A DNA stretch of 64,000 nt from Dehalococcoidia bacterium (GTDB lineage: Bacteria > Chloroflexota > Dehalococcoidia > SZUA-161 > SpSt-899). The position numbers were made by a program, and so were the translations under genes. Of the stretch, positions 40,171 to 62,803 are shown piece by piece; the first letter of the stretch is position 1; each line of letters begins with the position of its first letter. Location: contig JAWOBX010000036.1 in the NCBI GenBank assembly GCA_046484125.1, forward strand, positions 226-64,225, in the 5' to 3' direction. The notes below the pieces were generated by a model. The model saw nothing but the letters and a program-made list of their open reading frames with translations, had not been told where the DNA came from and ran no database searches.

Positions 40171-42357
40171 ATGAGTGAATTCGAAAACGGCCTGGATTAC
40201 CTTATGGCGGAGCTGCGTCGAATCGACCTTCGGCTTCGCCTGCAAGTGGCGCGACAGCGGCAGCGGAACGCTACATCACTCGACGACCAGTTCCGAGGAC
40301 TATTCATTTCGGAGGAAGAGATCGAATCCCTGGTATCCACCGGCGGCCCGCTTCCGGACAACGATTCTCTCGACCTCGAGGATTTGCCCGAAGCCAGTGC
40401 CTGCCGCCAATTTGAAAAAGGAGTAGCCGTTCGGAAAGAAACTGCACTGAAGAGCCATACAGAGATTCGCCTCCGAGACCTCGCTGGCTGTTTCAACCTC
40501 AATCAGTTTGAAGTCGACTCCCTGCTTATTTGCCTCCTTCCCGAGGTAGATACCAAATATGAGCGAATATTCGGCTATCTGCATGATGATGTAACCCGAA
40601 GACGCCCCACCATTAACCTGGCCCTCCAGTGCCTGCTGGACAATCGGGAGGAGAAAATGGCAGCTCGAGAGTCTTTTCTGGCTCACTCCCCGCTCATAGC
40701 GAACCACTTGATTCGCCTCGAGGAGGATTCGTCACCCGGGACATCCCCGCTTCTGGCCAGAAACCTCAAGATAGACGAACGGATAGCGAACTATCTGCTG
40801 GGTTCCGATCATATGGAACCTCGACTGGCGGGTTATACACGATTTATTAAACCCCTCTCAGGCCTCGGAAGCCTGGTTCTATCCGAACGATTGCGTCGGC
40901 AATTAAGCGAATTTGCCTCCCGGCTAAATGAAACCGAGCATATAGTCCTTTACCTTCAGGGCCCGGCCGGTATTGGCAGGAAGACTGCTGCCGAAGCGCT
41001 GTGCTGCGAATGCGGGCTGCCATTACTTACGGCGGATGTCCCCGGTTTACTGGCCAGCGGCCTGGTTCCGGAGACCGCTGTTTCCCTGGTGCTTCGAGAG
41101 GCAAAACTTCGCCGAGCTGCGCTTTGCTTTAGCGGCATTGACCCCGTCATCTCAGAGGAAAACACCATGAACGCGTGGTTGCAGACCATTACCCGTGCCG
41201 TAAATGTTGTTTGCCTGCCGGTTTTCATCACAGGAGAGACGGAATGGTACCCGGTGAACGCGCTTGAAAGGAAGCTTTATTTGCAGATGGAGATCGATGT
41301 CCCTCCCTATGATGTCAGGAGGCTCTTATGGAATAAATTCCTCAATGGGTACCCGGTGGAGATGACGCAAACGGATATTGATGAGGCCGCCGATAAGTTC
41401 CGATTCACTCCCGGCCAGATCAGGGATGCCGCCACAACTGCACGGGATATGTCCTTCGGCAGAGGTAGTGAGCATATATCAAAGGACGATCTCTACAAAG
41501 CCTGCCGGATTAAGTCCAACCGCAGGTTAAATATCATGGCGCGAAAGATAGAACCCAGATACGAATGGGAGGACATAGTTCTTCCTGAAGACCAGAAATA
41601 TCAGCTCCGAGAGATAGCGGACTACGTAAAATACCGGCATATCGTCTTTGCCGACTGGAACTTCGAACAGAAGCTTTCTCTGGGAAAGGGACTGAACGCG
41701 ATCTTCTCCGGCCCCTCCGGGACAGGGAAGACCATGGCCGCGGAGATAATCTCCAACGAACTGGGTCTCGACCTCTACAGAATCGACCTCTCCGCCGTGG
41801 TCAGCAAGTATATCGGGGAGACGGAGAAGAACCTCGATAGGATCTTTACCGAGGCTCGAAATTCAAACGCTATCCTGTTCTTCGATGAGGCCGATGCCGT
41901 TTTCGGCAAGCGCTCCGAAGTCAGGGATTCCCACGACCGCTATGCCAATATCGAAGTGGCCTATCTGCTGCAGAAAATGGAGGAATACGAGGGAATAGTT
42001 ATCCTGGCCACGAACTTGAAGAAGAACATCGATGAAGCTTTCGCCCGGCGCATGCATTTCAGCGTGGAATTCCCTCAGCCCGAGGCCTCCGACAGGCTCC
42101 TGATATGGCAGGGCATGTTTCCTCTTGAAGCCCCCCTGGGAGATGATGTGGATTTAAACTTCATGGCCCGGCAGTTTAAGATAACCGGCGGCAACATAAA
42201 GAACATCGCTTTATCGGCCGCATTCCTGGCCGCGAGCGACGGTCGCAGTATCAATATGGAGCATTTAATTCGGGCGACCAAGCGAGAATATCAGAAGGTC
42301 GGGAAGCTGTGGAATGAAACCGATTTCGGGCCTTTTTTCGAATTGATAAAGGGATAA
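40171..42357 (+). CDS. eCIS AAA+ ATPase (Afp15/Pvc15-like)
   Basis: C-terminal classical AAA module (GPSGTGKT Walker A, DEAD-like Walker B, second region of homology) with a large N-terminal domain. Embedded in the contractile-injection-system locus. Confidence 0.8.
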   Translation: MSEFENGLDYLMAELRRIDLRLRLQVARQRQRNATSLDDQFRGLFISEEEIESLVSTGGPLPDNDSLDLEDLPEASACRQFEKGVAVRKETALKSHTEIRLRDLAGCFNLNQFEVDSLLICLLPEVDTKYERIFGYLHDDVTRRRPTINLALQCLLDNREEKMAARESFLAHSPLIANHLIRLEEDSSPGTSPLLARNLKIDERIANYLLGSDHMEPRLAGYTRFIKPLSGLGSLVLSERLRRQLSEFASRLNETEHIVLYLQGPAGIGRKTAAEALCCECGLPLLTADVPGLLASGLVPETAVSLVLREAKLRRAALCFSGIDPVISEENTMNAWLQTITRAVNVVCLPVFITGETEWYPVNALERKLYLQMEIDVPPYDVRRLLWNKFLNGYPVEMTQTDIDEAADKFRFTPGQIRDAATTARDMSFGRGSEHISKDDLYKACRIKSNRRLNIMARKIEPRYEWEDIVLPEDQKYQLREIADYVKYRHIVFADWNFEQKLSLGKGLNAIFSGPSGTGKTMAAEIISNELGLDLYRIDLSAVVSKYIGETEKNLDRIFTEARNSNAILFFDEADAVFGKRSEVRDSHDRYANIEVAYLLQKMEEYEGIVILATNLKKNIDEAFARRMHFSVEFPQPEASDRLLIWQGMFPLEAPLGDDVDLNFMARQFKITGGNIKNIALSAAFLAASDGRSINMEHLIRATKREYQKVGKLWNETDFGPFFELIKG

Positions 42358-42362
42358 AGGGG

Positions 42363-61882: not shown

Positions 61883-61906
61883 CCCGAAAGAAGGAGGTAA
61901 ACTGAA

Positions 61907-62803
61907 ATGCAGAGGCTTTTTTCATTAGCGATGATTACACTGCTGGTAACTCTTCTGGCGGTCTCTTTCGCGGGTATCACCGCCGGCCAGGCCAGCGCCC
62001 AGGCCGGACCGAATATCAGATTAAGTCCAACATCGGGATTCTGCTCGGTCACAATCGAGGGAACAGGCTTTTCGGCCTGGACTGGAATCACCGTATACTG
62101 GGATGAAAAAGAGGTCCCGGCAATTATCGATACAGATCAGGAGACCAATTTCACAGCCATAATAACGGTGCCGACCCAGACAAGTCCGGGCGATCATGAA
62201 GTAAGAGTAGTAGACGGATATGGTGATGGGGATAGAGCTATATTCAGAGTCATCGATATGACCGGACCTCAGGGGATACCGGGTGTATCGGTCACAGGGC
62301 CGGCCGGGGAGGATGGTATCAACTGCTGGGATCTCAATGAAAACGGCCAGCCCGATGATGAGGAGGATATCAACGGTGACGGTGTTGTCGATGTACTGGA
62401 TTGCCGGGGACCGGAGGGTCCTCAGGGGCCTCCGGGAGAATCGACGGTGATAGAAGGAGCCCAGGGGCCAGCGGGGCCGGAAGGACCACCAGGGGAGCCG
62501 GGTGAGGATGGACTCGGCATTATCTGGCGTGGTGAATGGAATCCGGATGAAGAATATCTGGTTAATCACGCGGTTAACTACGAAGGAAGTGCATATATCT
62601 CCATTGCTCCATCGAGTGGCGCAGTTCCTGCTGAAGCTGGTGACAAGTGGGACCTGATGGTGGTAAAGGGTGAGGCCGGTGAGGTTGGAGAGGCCGGGGA
62701 AGCTGGGGGTGGGGGGGCCGTTGGCACAACGGGGTTCTTCCTGGGTCTTGCAGCCTTGATATTGATAGGAGCGGGTAAGGTGAAGGGCTGGATATTCGGG
62801 TAA
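61907..62803 (+). CDS. Secreted collagen-like (Gly-X-Y) repeat protein with a C-terminal Gly-rich/hydrophobic anchor
   Basis: Signal peptide. Runs of GPQGIPG / GPEGPQGPPGE / GPAGPEGPPGEPGEDG. C-terminus GGGGAVGTTGFFLGLAALILIGAGKVKGWIFG. Confidence 0.65.
   Translation: MQRLFSLAMITLLVTLLAVSFAGITAGQASAQAGPNIRLSPTSGFCSVTIEGTGFSAWTGITVYWDEKEVPAIIDTDQETNFTAIITVPTQTSPGDHEVRVVDGYGDGDRAIFRVIDMTGPQGIPGVSVTGPAGEDGINCWDLNENGQPDDEEDINGDGVVDVLDCRGPEGPQGPPGESTVIEGAQGPAGPEGPPGEPGEDGLGIIWRGEWNPDEEYLVNHAVNYEGSAYISIAPSSGAVPAEAGDKWDLMVVKGEAGEVGEAGEAGGGGAVGTTGFFLGLAALILIGAGKVKGWIFG

Follow-up and report, generated by a model that had tools for sequence, protein, structure and literature searches.

Gene content of the locus and its flanks

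The analysed window, a stretch of 64,000 nt of chromosomal DNA from an uncultured Dehalococcoidia, carries at 40171-62803 (+) a run of 19 co-directional ORFs separated by short gaps (Table 1). Pfam assignments refer to scores above the gathering threshold, unless marked as below cutoff. Every core gene of a contractile injection system (CIS) is present here, with the exception of PAAR. The first-pass annotation, which had proposed a complete CIS-class locus with every core component, is borne out apart from this gene. No PAAR gene is present anywhere in the window; the Cis8 VgrG carries a C-terminal beta-helix-like extension, and the gene that follows it is not PAAR. Many relatives carry a PAAR gene between VgrG and gp25, and the Streptomyces coelicolor CIS likewise has none. 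The genes of the upstream and downstream flanks encode FtsH, panB, PHO4, DAHP synthase, FKBP and NfeD/Band7, followed by tRNA-Gln and a MazF gene. What the analysis itself shows are the genes present, their homologies and conserved synteny, the leader shared by the cargo proteins, and predicted folds and topology.

Table 1. Features of the locus and its borders, in order of position in the window.
Feature	Position	Strand	Evidence or remark
Zn-ribbon + DUF4870 small membrane protein	38945..39346	-	Pfam Zn_Ribbon_1 + DUF4870; divergent from ATPase gene
Second Zn-ribbon membrane protein	39430..39789	-	Pfam Zn_Ribbon_1/DZR; tblastn self-match
Cis15/Afp15-like AAA+ ATPase (WHD N-domain + AAA)	40171..42357	+	PF22977 2e-52, PF00004 2e-33
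Cargo/adaptor 1: leader + eCIS_core (DUF4157, HELTH motif) + uncharacterised C-terminal domain	42363..43679	+	PF13699 2.5e-30
Cargo 2: leader + Peptidase_C70 (AvrRpt2-like papain-fold cysteine protease)	43722..44615	+	PF12385 1.6e-18
Cargo 3: leader + rare uncharacterised C-terminal domain	44731..46008	+	Database form 425 aa, start 44731
Cis16/Afp16 cap (tail terminator) + extra C-terminal CarboxypepD_reg Ig-like domain	46046..46861	+	PF14065 (Pvc16_N) 1e-32
Cis2 sheath, single copy	47058..48611	+	PF04984/PF17482
Cis1a inner tube (gp19-type)	48634..49086	+	PF06841 9e-32
Tail assembly chaperone-like protein (P2 gpE / lambda gpG analogue)	49237..49602	+	phrog_508 'tail assembly chaperone' 5.6e-7
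DUF6760 reading frame	49575..49781	+	PF20546 2.7e-13; weak Phage_P2_GpE 0.06
Small protein, 97 aa	49813..50106	+	C-terminal motif 'IADMVYRLMKKDLVLERER', same as in 729-aa protein
Cis1b second tube protein (gp19-type)	50172..50630	+	PF06841 2e-45
Long, largely low-complexity, tape-measure-like candidate, 729 aa	50635..52824	+	Between tube 2 and tube initiator
Cis7 tube initiator with LysM (CIS_tube+LysM)	52846..53511	+	PF19266 5e-26, PF01476 1e-4
Cis8 VgrG-like spike, gp27+gp5 in one ORF (GPD+base_V)	53637..55370	+	PF05954, PF04717
Cis9 gp25-like sheath initiator	55457..55861	+	PF04965 1e-24
Cis11 baseplate wedge (gp6/J-like; Baseplate_J)	55881..57854	+	PF04865
Cis12 baseplate wedge (P2 gpI-like, short form; Tail_P2_I)	57865..58458	+	PF09684, TIGR02242, CIS12_fam partial
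Fibre-slot protein: Cis13/Cis19/TssK-like, baseplate-binding-type N-domain + disordered linker + DUF4159 (flavodoxin/ThuA-like)	58448..59668	+	PF13709 8e-17
Tail-anchored membrane protein: five ASH/MSP-type Ig-like domains + zinc-ribbon insert	59936..61882	+	Pfam; AF2 pLDDT 83
Secreted TIG + collagen-repeat protein, C-terminal membrane anchor	61907..62803	+	PF01833/PF01391
tRNA-Gln(CTG)	62997..63070	+	ARAGORN and Rfam; cluster's downstream edge

Subtype assignment and gene order

The sheath matched PDB 8bky (6e-167) and 8bl4 (4e-164) over its full length, whereas its matches to the Afp, PVC, AlgoCIS and tCIS sheaths were confined to the C-terminal part. Cis11 was matched end to end by 9gtp_1K (7e-159) and Cis12 over its full length by 9gtp_E (2e-20); for the cap, the match to 9gts_0A (1.4e-29) covered residues 1-168, that is, the N-terminal domain only. 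These four proteins find their best matches in the solved S. coelicolor CIS (CIS-Sc), a cytoplasmic system of subtype IId (Casu 2023/2025; Vladimirov 2023), and the locus is therefore assigned to this subtype. It also has the single VgrG ORF and the single Cis11 copy described for IId, within a lineage II that is characterised by subtype-specific conserved gene organisation (Chen et al., 2019). Two tube genes, the missing PAAR and Afp13-type fibre, and ATPase, cap and effector genes on the sheath-proximal side are further features common to the locus and CIS-Sc. Unlike CIS-Sc, the locus lacks a homologue of CisA, with which it shares no more than a generic zinc ribbon, its ATPase module is co-directional rather than divergent, it encodes three leader-bearing cargos and a cap with an extra Ig-like domain, and its fibre slot is occupied by a DUF4159 protein together with Ig-membrane and collagen-like proteins. 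The IId systems of Chloroflexota and Deinococcota (Roseiflexus, Thermogemmatispora carboxidivorans; Gaisin et al., 2026) belong to the same subtype and the same phylum-level host group. Gene order is unchanged in the T. carboxidivorans locus (L053), whose sheath is 52% identical; sheath identity to this group reaches only ~52-57%. With Afp and PVC (lineage I eCIS) the locus shares the core set Afp1/5, 2, 7, 8, 9, 11, 15 and 16; these systems differ in that they have three sheath paralogues, use Afp13 fibres and an Afp14 tape measure, and carry the ATPase and cap genes at the 3' end.

The placement of ATPase, cargo genes and cap before the sheath, reported in the first-pass annotation, was confirmed, but its description as an unusual permutation does not hold. 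Dozens of loci from Chloroflexota, Acidobacteriota and Actinomycetota show the order ATPase-DUF4157/cargo-cap-sheath; among related loci of Chloroflexota/Acidobacteriota, more than 25 follow the order ATPase, DUF4157 gene, cap, sheath, tube and on to the baseplate. The same order with the ATPase/cap module inverted occurs in Limnocylindria and Actinomycetota, and the same arrangement is present on an annotated Streptomyces plasmid. The gene order is thus permuted relative to Afp/PVC only and is typical of the lineage; from sheath to baseplate it is the order of the phage P2 tail.

This P2-like order, the tail-assembly-chaperone-like gene and the tRNA gene abutting the cluster could also belong to a prophage tail module or an R-type tailocin. 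However, the 40 kb upstream and 1.2 kb downstream are free of genes for capsid, terminase, portal, integrase and lysis, and the cluster contains three CIS markers, namely the Cis15 ATPase, the Pvc16_N cap and the eCIS_core domain; relatives lie in varied chromosomal contexts without phage genes. Moreover, a query composed of the chaperone and DUF6760 had no match in 50,697 phage records. The content of cluster and flanks effectively refutes this highly improbable reading, and the earlier exclusion of a prophage, for which the absence of capsid, terminase and portal genes from the flanks was checked, is upheld. A type VI secretion system (T6SS) has close to no probability. VgrG, gp25/TssE-like and Hcp-like tube folds are common to both system types, and there is a TssK-like fold match as well as a weak TssF match that stays below cutoff (E 0.003). 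Nevertheless, the sheath is a single phage-type protein and not TssB/TssC, TssJ/L/M, TssA and ClpV were not found, and the locus encodes a Pvc16-type cap, a DUF4157 protein and a tube initiator with LysM; the gene content refutes this reading. The locus very probably represents a complete, chromosomal subtype IId CIS of the Streptomyces CIS-Sc/Chloroflexota type, with a three-module architecture and predicted loading and assembly functions. The first module, for loading and termination, comprises the ATPase, the three cargos and the cap; the second is the structural core from sheath to Cis12; the third, in the position of the tail fibres, is specific to this Dehalococcoidia branch and comprises the DUF4159, Ig-membrane and collagen-like proteins. 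The class is already known and the locus is a modest variant of it; notable are the predicted loading tag common to its three cargos, the membrane proteins encoded in place of tail fibres, and a chaperone that is probably frameshifted in the manner of phages.

Cargo leader, chaperone and long protein

The three adjacent cargo genes have a common N-terminal leader of ~100 aa, followed by DUF4157, C70 or the rare domain. Its motif, LQxxYGNAYVQR, occurs within the 64-kb window only in these three ORFs (residues 57-84 of cargo 1 and 70-96 of cargo 2); it also occurs in 32 of 80 related loci, there in the region of the DUF4157 gene, and is common across phyla. Cargo 1 is Sle2/Cgo-like by architecture, and in cargo 2 the residues C162/H243/D259 are candidate catalytic residues. 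Cargo 3, whose start is most likely 44731 and not 44539 as annotated before for this fourth gene, had no Pfam, NCBIfam or PHROG match. Its leader (~residues 10-105) matches the N-termini of more than 200 cluster representatives, its C-domain only ~15. Leader-bearing representatives are 80-1593 aa long; eCIS_core was detected in 38 of the 80 scanned, and others carry C70, DUF922, YkuD, OmpA or reprolysin domains. In AlgoCIS, the cargos of one system (Cgo1/Cgo2) have an N-terminal loading sequence in common, and their loading depends on the AAA+ protein Alg15, the orthologue of the ATPase at the locus. The likeness to the locus lies in a common cargo sequence combined with an AAA+ ATPase, but the leader described here is a sharply conserved cross-phylum motif, whereas the AlgoCIS sequences are system-specific and disordered. 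As here, the SLP effectors Sle1/Sle2 of Streptomyces lividans combine a DUF4157 protein with an adjacent effector that lacks this domain, their genes lying upstream of the sheath gene; the cargo domains at the locus, a C70 protease and a rare uncharacterised domain, are different from those of Sle and Cgo. The effector content, formerly considered unusual, thus follows a known pattern as far as the DUF4157 gene and its neighbours are concerned.

The chaperone-like protein is 50-92% identical across phyla. A DUF6760 ORF of 52-62 aa at 49575-49781, overlooked in the earlier description, is read in frame -1 with respect to the chaperone gene, whose last 28 nt it overlaps, with a candidate slippery site G GGG GGA at 49593-49599. 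Of 73 related loci, 52 show the -1 arrangement, and in 50 of these five or more G stand in a row; the test used did not detect it in Thermogemmatispora-type loci. In 13 loci, the window included, no ATG/GTG/TTG precedes the conserved DUF6760 block, and the would-be start residue varies (M, V, L, K, I). The chaperone is probably extended by a -1 frameshift into DUF6760, and the candidate fusion peptide would span ...NPGGIKGYPLEE.... The 97-aa protein encoded next is conserved in four related loci (L001-L003 and L006). The 729-aa protein had no match in Pfam, NCBIfam, PHROGs or PDB; its conserved C-terminal helix motif recurs in ORFs of 604-1476 aa that take the corresponding position in loci of Chloroflexota and Actinomycetota and on a Streptomyces plasmid. 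As a tape-measure candidate, the term used for it earlier, it is supported by its position and this motif and by no family match. The chaperone followed by the -1 DUF6760 frame, along with a long disordered protein bearing a lineage-wide C-terminal motif, suggests a phage-like chaperone/tape-measure route. As with P2 gpE/gpE+E' and lambda gpG/gpGT, the chaperone gene follows a tube gene, a short -1 ORF overlaps its end at a slippery-looking heptamer, and a tape-measure-like gene lies downstream. The differences are that homology is weak (phrog_508 at 5.6e-7; PF10109 Phage_TAC_7 at 0.0037 and PF06528 below cutoff), that the small gene and the second tube gene separate the chaperone from the long protein, and that the fusion product is a predicted one.

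Fibre-slot proteins and proposed mode of action

Residues 10-160 of the DUF4159 protein match NCBIfam CIS13_fam (7e-13); the score lies well under the family cutoff, since the match is limited to the N-domain. This N-domain also gave a weak profile match to the tCIS Cis19 N-terminus (E 0.003), and a Foldseek search with the AF2 model returned 4i66 (3e-8) and, weakly, TssK 5y0e (1.5e-3). To our knowledge, DUF4159 has no known function. Wherever the sequence of a locus extends far enough, its gene stands directly before the Ig-membrane gene, and it adjoins Cis12 in most informative metagenome loci; the collagen-like gene comes after the Ig-membrane gene in most related loci. The Ig-membrane protein lacks a signal peptide; residues ~564-590 form its predicted TM helix, and its short WGGGW tail is conserved. 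The positive-inside rule holds in most family members, the top Foldseek matches are cytosolic ciliary ASH-repeat proteins, and relatives carry FHA-Ig-TM. The collagen-like protein has a signal-peptide-like N-terminus and a hydrophobic C-terminus; its match to the tail fibre phrog_5073 (1e-19) is compositional and driven by collagen repeats. The trio was found only in the Dehalococcoidia branch and no description of it was met in the searched literature, so that for these genes the claim of unusual accessory content stands.

Statements on the function of the locus rest on homology and synteny in metagenome-assembled sequence. Particle assembly would take place in the cytoplasm, with the baseplate as platform, the long protein at the centre and the chaperone as helper, and the sheath would polymerise up to the cap. 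The ATPase would recognise the common leader and feed the three cargos into the tube, and contraction would expel spike, tube and cargo. The trio may be a membrane-docking module, in which the DUF4159 protein would dock the baseplate onto the Ig-membrane protein, its five Ig-like domains facing the cytoplasm, at the inner face of the cell membrane. TssK links the baseplate to the membrane complex. Together with the thylakoid-anchored tCIS of Anabaena (Weiss et al., 2022), it provides a precedent for membrane anchoring via modified fibre or baseplate proteins, and the N-domain of the DUF4159 protein bears a weak resemblance to TssK and to the tCIS Cis19 N-terminus. However, the tCIS fibre itself bears the TM helix, which at the locus is on a separate neighbouring protein, the tCIS sheath is only distantly related (1e-52, C-terminal only), and the TssJLM of the T6SS are missing. 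Characterised IId systems (Streptomyces, Roseiflexus, Deinococcota) are intracellular, and therefore the label "extracellular" is not established for the locus and "eCIS or tailocin" was too specific. By analogy, an intracellular mode is favoured for the locus, at about even odds, and our confidence in docking is lower. In Roseiflexus and Deinococcota, IId particles were observed lying free in the cytoplasm and had no membrane attachment; if docking does occur, it may be transient or confined to the Dehalococcoidia branch.

Alternatively, the locus may encode a classical extracellular CIS released by lysis, with the DUF4159 protein as a receptor-binding fibre and the Ig-membrane and collagen-like proteins as unrelated envelope proteins or as release or immunity factors. 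The position of the DUF4159 protein after the wedge genes, the usual place of fibre genes, its fibre-type N-domain, a papain-like protease among the cargos whose family has known effectors, and the unexpected domains of many eCIS fibres make this a plausible, though less favoured, possibility. It leaves unexplained the strict adjacency of the DUF4159 gene and a membrane protein with cytoplasm-facing domains; moreover, all IId systems examined in situ are intracellular, DUF4159 has a flavodoxin/ThuA-like alpha/beta fold and not a lectin-like binding domain, and no lysis genes were seen in the window. It is also possible, though less likely than not, that the trio is a separate envelope module merely adjoining the CIS and that DUF6760 is a translationally coupled small gene, not a frameshift product. 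The DUF4159/Ig-membrane pair persists in L081 with no CIS genes within 10 kb, and in four loci (L111, L114, L115, L125) it either stands apart from the baseplate genes or converges with them. Likewise, an ATG/GTG overlaps the chaperone stop (ATGA/GTGA) in most Actinomycetota loci, the G-run could serve as a Shine-Dalgarno sequence, and RefSeq annotates DUF6760 as a separate gene. Against a separate module speak the CIS-fibre N-domain of the DUF4159 protein, which is truncated in L081, the prevailing adjacency to Cis12, and the Ig+TM proteins that recur at other positions in IId loci of other phyla; against coupling speak the 13 loci lacking a start codon.

Of the two divergent Zn-ribbon membrane proteins, the one nearer to the ATPase gene has an N-terminus paralogous to that of the other (tblastn within the window), and its membership of the CIS is uncertain. 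The DUF4870-containing protein is a possible CIS accessory. Its likeness to the protein in the CisA position of the Streptomyces plasmid is limited to the zinc ribbon. Its homologues directly follow the collagen-like gene in five related loci (L082, L103, L097, L102, L126), and in L134 the homologue occupies the same place on the opposite strand.

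Class and gene content of the locus

The core contractile injection system (CIS) gene set recognised in the first-pass annotation is borne out by Pfam matches above the gathering score. The 19 closely packed ORFs (intergenic gaps of -28 to 267 nt) encode an AAA+ ATPase with a winged-helix N-domain, an eCIS_core (formerly DUF4157) protein, a Peptidase_C70 protein, a Pvc16_N cap, one sheath, two gp19-type tubes, a CIS_tube+LysM initiator, a one-piece VgrG, gp25, Baseplate_J and Tail_P2_I. In the gene model of that annotation, the fourth gene probably starts at 44731 instead, and one small overlapping ORF had been overlooked. 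Promoter and terminator scans gave no excess over the shuffled expectation, and operon boundaries are therefore not claimed.

On the basis of best hits and organisation, the locus is assigned to subtype IId in every tested feature bar PAAR. All eight backbone subunits of the dbeCIS scheme (Afp1/5, Afp2/3/4, Afp7, Afp8, Afp9, Afp11, Afp15 and Afp16; Chen et al., 2019) are present, each above the Pfam gathering score. Subtype IId is defined partly by a single contiguous afp8 (gp27+gp5) and a single afp11 (Chen et al., 2019); here, a single 577-aa ORF contains both GPD and base_V, and Baseplate_J occurs once. The gene organisation is also the one typical of IId, lineage II subtypes having a conserved organisation of their own (Chen et al., 2019). 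The best solved matches are all to the Streptomyces CIS, namely for the sheath (8bky/8bl4, 6e-167, full length), Cis11 (9gtp_1K, 7e-159, residues 1-655 against 1-647), Cis12 (9gtp_E, 2e-20) and the cap (9gts_0A, 1e-29), and the match to the sheaths of Afp, PVC, AlgoCIS and the thylakoid-anchored CIS of Anabaena (tCIS) is limited to the conserved C-terminal domain. Hundreds of sheath relatives at 65-96% identity occur in metagenome bins of Dehalococcoidia and other Chloroflexota, and the sheath is 52-58% identical to those of other Chloroflexota, Acidobacteriota, Deinococcales and Actinomycetota, including Thermogemmatispora carboxidivorans. In genomes, the relatives belong to Chloroflexota and Actinomycetota loci whose organisation is that of IId. 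Two other proteins of the locus, g17 and g18, are 100% identical to proteins of an NCBI Dehalococcoidia MAG contig; an exact look-up of the sheath returned no record.

PAAR (afp10) is listed for subtypes I, IIa, IIc and IId (Chen et al., 2019). No PAAR match was found anywhere in the window, where the gap between VgrG and gp25 is just 86 nt. In many relatives PAAR occupies this position (L001, L082 and L103 were compared; L numbers denote related genome or metagenome loci), and the closest, L001, gives a weak partial match, which suggests a recent loss in the sublineage of the window. The absence of PAAR is not disqualifying for IId, because the CIS of Streptomyces coelicolor (CIS-Sc) likewise has none.

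Table. Positions of the features discussed, in the window unless another locus is named
Feature	Position	Strand	Description
Possible island	1-14000		G+C 0.43-0.48
CIS locus	40171-62803	+	19 ORFs
Cargo 1	42363-43679	+	DUF4157/eCIS_core
Cargo 2	43722-44615	+	Peptidase_C70
Cargo 3	44731-46008	+	rare C-terminal domain
Extra cap domain	46640-46861	+	cap residues 197-265
Chaperone	49237-49602	+	121 aa
DUF6760 frame	49575-49781	+	-1 frame
Small protein	49813-50106	+	97 aa
Long protein	50635-52824	+	729 aa
VgrG-gp25 region	53637-55457	+	no PAAR match
g17	58448-59668	+	DUF4159 protein, fibre slot
g18	59936-61882	+	Ig-membrane protein
g19	61907-62803	+	collagen-like protein
tRNA-Gln(CTG)	62997-63070		directly 3' of the cluster
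MazF/PemK toxin gene	63397-63741	-
L081, Dehalococcoidales CP070832.1	9054-11806		g17-g18 pair
L012	1430-4831	+	FHA-Ig-TM protein
L013	2692-6069	+	FHA-Ig-TM protein
L017	2553-6107	+	FHA-Ig-TM protein

The main claim of the first-pass annotation, an eCIS or tailocin with an unusually permuted gene order, is largely explained away by the IId features and by the recurrence of this order, which is permuted relative to Afp/PVC only. When the 19 locus proteins were compared by tblastn with 80 sheath-anchored genome loci, more than 25 loci of Chloroflexota and Acidobacteriota shared the order ATPase, DUF4157 gene, cap, sheath, tube, chaperone, tube 2, long ORF, LysM, VgrG, gp25, Cis11 and Cis12. The tail genes of phage P2 run FI-FII-E/E'-T ... 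V-W-J-I, and the order from sheath to Cis12 is the same here. An annotated Streptomyces plasmid carries, all co-directionally, cap, ATPase, sheath, tube, chaperone, DUF6760, a 1020-aa ORF, tube, LysM, VgrG, PAAR, gp25, J, Cis12 and a zinc-ribbon protein. Limnocylindria, many 'Chloroflexia' bins and Actinomycetota carry the ATPase/DUF4157/cap block in inverted orientation beside the sheath, which agrees with the divergent promoters described in S. coelicolor.

As judged from its gene content, the locus is not lineage I, a type VI secretion system (T6SS) or a prophage. In lineage I (Afp/PVC) the ATPase and cap are at the 3' end and there are three sheath paralogues, whereas here both genes lie 5' of a single sheath; homologues of the Afp13 fibre and the Afp14 tape measure were not found at the locus in Pfam and PDB searches. 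Assignment to a T6SS, which the earlier annotation had named as one outcome that would overturn it, finds resemblance only in a sub-threshold TssF match and a fold-level likeness to TssK, and no Pfam match at the locus to TssB/TssC, TssJLM, TssK or ClpV. Its statement that capsid and terminase genes are missing holds as well: head, packaging, integrase and lysis genes were not found in 40 kb upstream and 1.2 kb downstream. The upstream 40 kb code for FtsH, PanB, a phosphate transporter, DAHP synthase, FKBP, NfeD/Band7 and others, and downstream of the cluster come the tRNA-Gln(CTG), which is the sole RNA-family match in the window, and a MazF gene. A prophage or an R-type tailocin is thus at odds with the housekeeping flanks, of which the downstream one spans 1.2 kb, and with the presence of the CIS ATPase, cap and DUF4157. 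No integrase is visible beside the tRNA and MazF genes in the short remaining downstream flank (62997-63741).

As a CIS locus it is ordinary: the subtype IId is widespread and of documented gene order, and its Chloroflexota members have already been seen by imaging. The remaining interest lies in the docking-module and chaperone/ruler leads. The locus differs from characterised IId systems in the trio of genes at the fibre slot, the lack of CisA, a three-cargo array and an extra cap domain. The last is a C-terminal CarboxypepD_reg Ig-like domain, absent from the solved 225-aa Streptomyces cap. At the other end of the window, a stretch of lower G+C (0.43-0.48 against about 0.52) may be a separate acquired island; it encodes proteins of 943 aa (weak CARF match), 800 aa (zf-HC2, anti-sigma-like, with TPR) and 1454 aa (CARDB/Ig repeats, sub-threshold glucosaminidase match).

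Cargo slot and shared leader

The slot between ATPase and cap measures 3.7 kb in the window and its two closest relatives. Most other Chloroflexota loci have a slot of about 0.9 kb that holds a single small DUF4157 gene, and elsewhere it is almost empty. All three slot proteins have in common the N-terminal motif Q(R/K)AR(I/L)xxx(L/I)QxxYGNAY(V/A)QR(L/I/V)(L/I). A regular expression for the core of this leader matches only the three cargo ORFs in the 64-kb window, and in 32 of 80 related loci it matches the region of the DUF4157 gene. With cargo 3 as the query, an exhaustive HMMER search returned 237 cluster representatives, about 15 of which match its C-terminal domain; the others match only cargo residues ~10-105, at their own N-termini, in proteins of 80 to 1593 aa. 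Among 80 leader-bearing representatives scanned, 38 carry eCIS_core and about half have no Pfam domain, with C70, DUF922, YkuD, OmpA and reprolysin found in single cases. As read from these sequences, the shared leader has the architecture of a modular delivery tag. Cargo 1 and cargo 3 gave nothing in NCBIfam or PHROGs. Cargo 1 retains, as read from the sequence, an HExxH motif (HELTH), and C162, H243 and D259 are plausible candidate catalytic residues of cargo 2.

How the leader and the ATPase would act in loading is taken from published work on S. lividans, AlgoCIS and DUF4157. DUF4157 is a mark of eCIS toxins or adjoins toxins; the S. lividans DUF4157 protein Sle2 binds both a tube-initiator-like protein and the neighbouring effector Sle1; and in AlgoCIS an N-terminal loading sequence is common to both cargos and loading needs the AAA+ protein Alg15. 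The sharply conserved leader, carried by three different cargos and by hundreds of other proteins, can serve as a marker in the search for IId cargo, and perhaps in engineered loading. In seven Dehalococcoidia-type contigs (L104, L108, L114, L115, L125, L126 and L140) the DUF4157 cargo gene is found either beside the trio or in the interval from Cis12 to the DUF4159 gene, away from the ATPase-cap slot, and the cargo position is therefore mobile in this branch.

Chaperone, -1 frame and long protein

Among the small genes of the locus, the chaperone-like one that follows the first tube is conserved best (50-92% identity across phyla). Its product matches PHROG 508, 'tail assembly chaperone' (5.6e-7), and weakly Phage_TAC_7; the PDB sequence search gave nothing useful. 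The gene ends in AAC CCG GGG GGA TAA, with a candidate slippery G GGG GGA in phase. An open -1 frame, which overlaps the last 28 nt of the chaperone gene, encodes GGIKGYPLEEMFEEVAYIAYYLHWPL..., a DUF6760 domain (2.7e-13) with a sub-threshold match to Phage_P2_GpE. If a -1 shift occurs, the predicted junction peptide of the window would be ...SNPGGIKGYPLEE.... The arrangement was counted among 73 related loci with sufficient sequence: the DUF6760 block lies in the -1 frame, overlapping the chaperone end, in 52, and a G-run of at least 5 is present in 50 of these. The -1 peptide always starts with (P/A)GGI, followed by M, V, L, K or I. This two-piece match recurs in 48 plasmid records of Streptomyces, Nostoc, Ralstonia, Paenibacillus, Deinococcus and haloarchaea, and where the pair is annotated (plasmid records, RefSeq) it appears as two separate genes. 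The product has no detectable relative in 50,697 phage records, and the literature searched mentions neither DUF6760 nor a frameshifted chaperone in a CIS. These observations concern the window, L001-L080, L158 and the plasmid records.

The conserved G-run and -1 frame were dropped as clear proof of frameshifting, since ATGA/GTGA overlaps, in which the G-run would be the ribosome-binding site (Shine-Dalgarno) of translationally coupled genes, could account for most Actinomycetota loci. In 13 loci, including the window, no ATG, GTG or TTG lies between the preceding -1-frame stop and the conserved DUF6760 block. The frameshift reading is thereby partly restored, and a programmed -1 shift, or slippage on the G-run, probably joins the chaperone to DUF6760.

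The 729-aa protein had no family in Pfam, NCBIfam or PHROGs and nothing useful in the PDB sequence search. Its C-terminus, EAIARQVYAIIKRRLAVEKERSG, matches an amphipathic motif (about LDxLAxxVYxxLKxRLxxExERxG) that ends long disordered ORFs of 604-1476 aa at the equivalent position, between chaperone and tube initiator, in Chloroflexota, Actinomycetota and a Streptomyces plasmid (L007, L012, L020, L023, L040, L053, L062, L066, L074-L079 and L158). The motif recurs on the 97-aa protein upstream of tube 2 in the window and its nearest relatives, a protein with nothing in NCBIfam or PHROGs. Direct similarity of the 729-aa protein to the long Streptomyces ORF is only low-complexity; the basis of the link is the C-terminal motif. 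In the literature on CIS-Sc, the tape-measure gene is absent, yet particle length is uniform. The chaperone, its -1 extension and the long-protein family may form a candidate ruler system. To the question of how length is set when 'the tape-measure gene is absent' they suggest a phage-like ruler, a lead that could be pursued in genetically tractable Streptomyces.

Post-baseplate genes and possible membrane docking

Residues 10-160 of g17 match NCBIfam CIS13_fam (7e-13, N-terminal part only), and its family profile weakly matches the N-terminus of tCIS Cis19 (0.003). The C-terminal half is DUF4159 (residues 218-406), a domain of no known function. In the AlphaFold2 model (mean pLDDT 70), a disordered Pro/Ala linker joins a beta N-domain to a confident alpha/beta domain, and the model matches the DUF4159 structure 4i66 (3e-8) and ThuA-/flavodoxin-like folds. 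A weak, remote match to TssK (5y0e, 1.5e-3) also appears, for the whole model and not assigned to one domain. g18 lacks a signal peptide; a single, very hydrophobic helix lies near its C-terminus and is preceded by net positive charge in 24 of 25 family members. Its model is confident (pLDDT 83), with five Ig-like domains followed by the TM helix, and the structures it resembles most are those of cytosolic ASH-repeat proteins from the ciliary central pair. The zinc ribbon inside g18 was rejected as a family feature, since only this protein and a few other sequences have it inserted. g19 starts with a signal-peptide-like sequence and ends in a hydrophobic stretch; it also has a TIG domain and collagen repeats.

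Linkage of the trio was assessed in 75 metagenome loci anchored on g18. g17 directly precedes g18 wherever the sequence allows, most informative loci have Cis11-Cis12 before g17, and g18 is usually followed by g19; the exceptions are L111 (convergent) and L114, L115 and L125, with an inserted DUF4157 gene. In L081, a 5'-truncated g17 and an intact g18 are flanked by relA and hisS, and CIS genes are missing within 10 kb of the pair. An ancestral stand-alone module was rejected here, since the DUF4159 protein is without the first ~100 residues of the fibre-type N-domain; the pair looks like a remnant of a lost CIS, a CIS-independent role being the other option.

In Streptomyces the bitopic membrane protein CisA is needed for firing. 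No CisA homologue was detected in the comparison of the Zn-ribbon/DUF4870 membrane protein, whose gene lies upstream of the ATPase in the window and follows g19 in six relatives, with the CisA-position protein of the Streptomyces plasmid; only a generic zinc ribbon is shared, and relatedness to CisA is unsupported beyond it. A different bitopic protein, g18, is present instead. Ig+TM proteins homologous to the g18 module also adjoin the ATPase or cap in 'Chloroflexia', Anaerolineaceae, Limnocylindria and Ilumatobacteraceae loci. Beside the ATPase in the Chloroflexota IId loci L012, L013 and L017 stands a protein of ~1100 aa with FHA, a g18-type Ig module and TM helices, followed in L012 and L013 by a Peptidase_C39-like extracytoplasmic domain that was not detected in L017. 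With FHA before the Ig module and the C39-like domain after the TM, the Ig module would therefore be cytoplasmic.

g17 could sit on the baseplate in a fibre- or TssK-like manner, and its DUF4159 domain could touch the cytoplasmic Ig domains of g18, by which the baseplate would be brought to the membrane. Docking precedents are the tCIS anchors Cis13 and Cis12, the proposed contact of CisA with Cis11, and TssK in the T6SS. Imaged IId particles of Chloroflexota and Deinococcota are free in the cytoplasm, and a cytoplasmic mode would here follow the precedent of relatives. Docking to g18 by the DUF4159 domain is a tentative proposal, on the doubtful side. The joint reading, in which the IId fibre slot of this Dehalococcoidia branch is taken by a TssK-like adaptor (a fibre-type baseplate-binding domain fused to DUF4159) docking the baseplate to the tail-anchored g18, and in which IId systems retain a phage-type frameshifted chaperone (TAC-DUF6760) and a long tape-measure-like protein with a conserved C-terminus, is unlikely as a whole. 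If it were true, firing would be inside-out and membrane-anchored, evolved separately from the T6SS membrane complex and CisA; g19 would be the collagen-like partner of g18 on the outer face, and the Ig+TM proteins, some with FHA, would serve the same job in other IId lineages. Recent papers ask how CisA-less cytoplasmic CIS outside Streptomyces meet the membrane, and the strictly linked g17/g18 pair and the recurring Ig+TM proteins of other IId loci are concrete candidates for this contact. The FHA domain of the L012, L013 and L017 proteins hints at phospho-threonine control, as in some T6SS.
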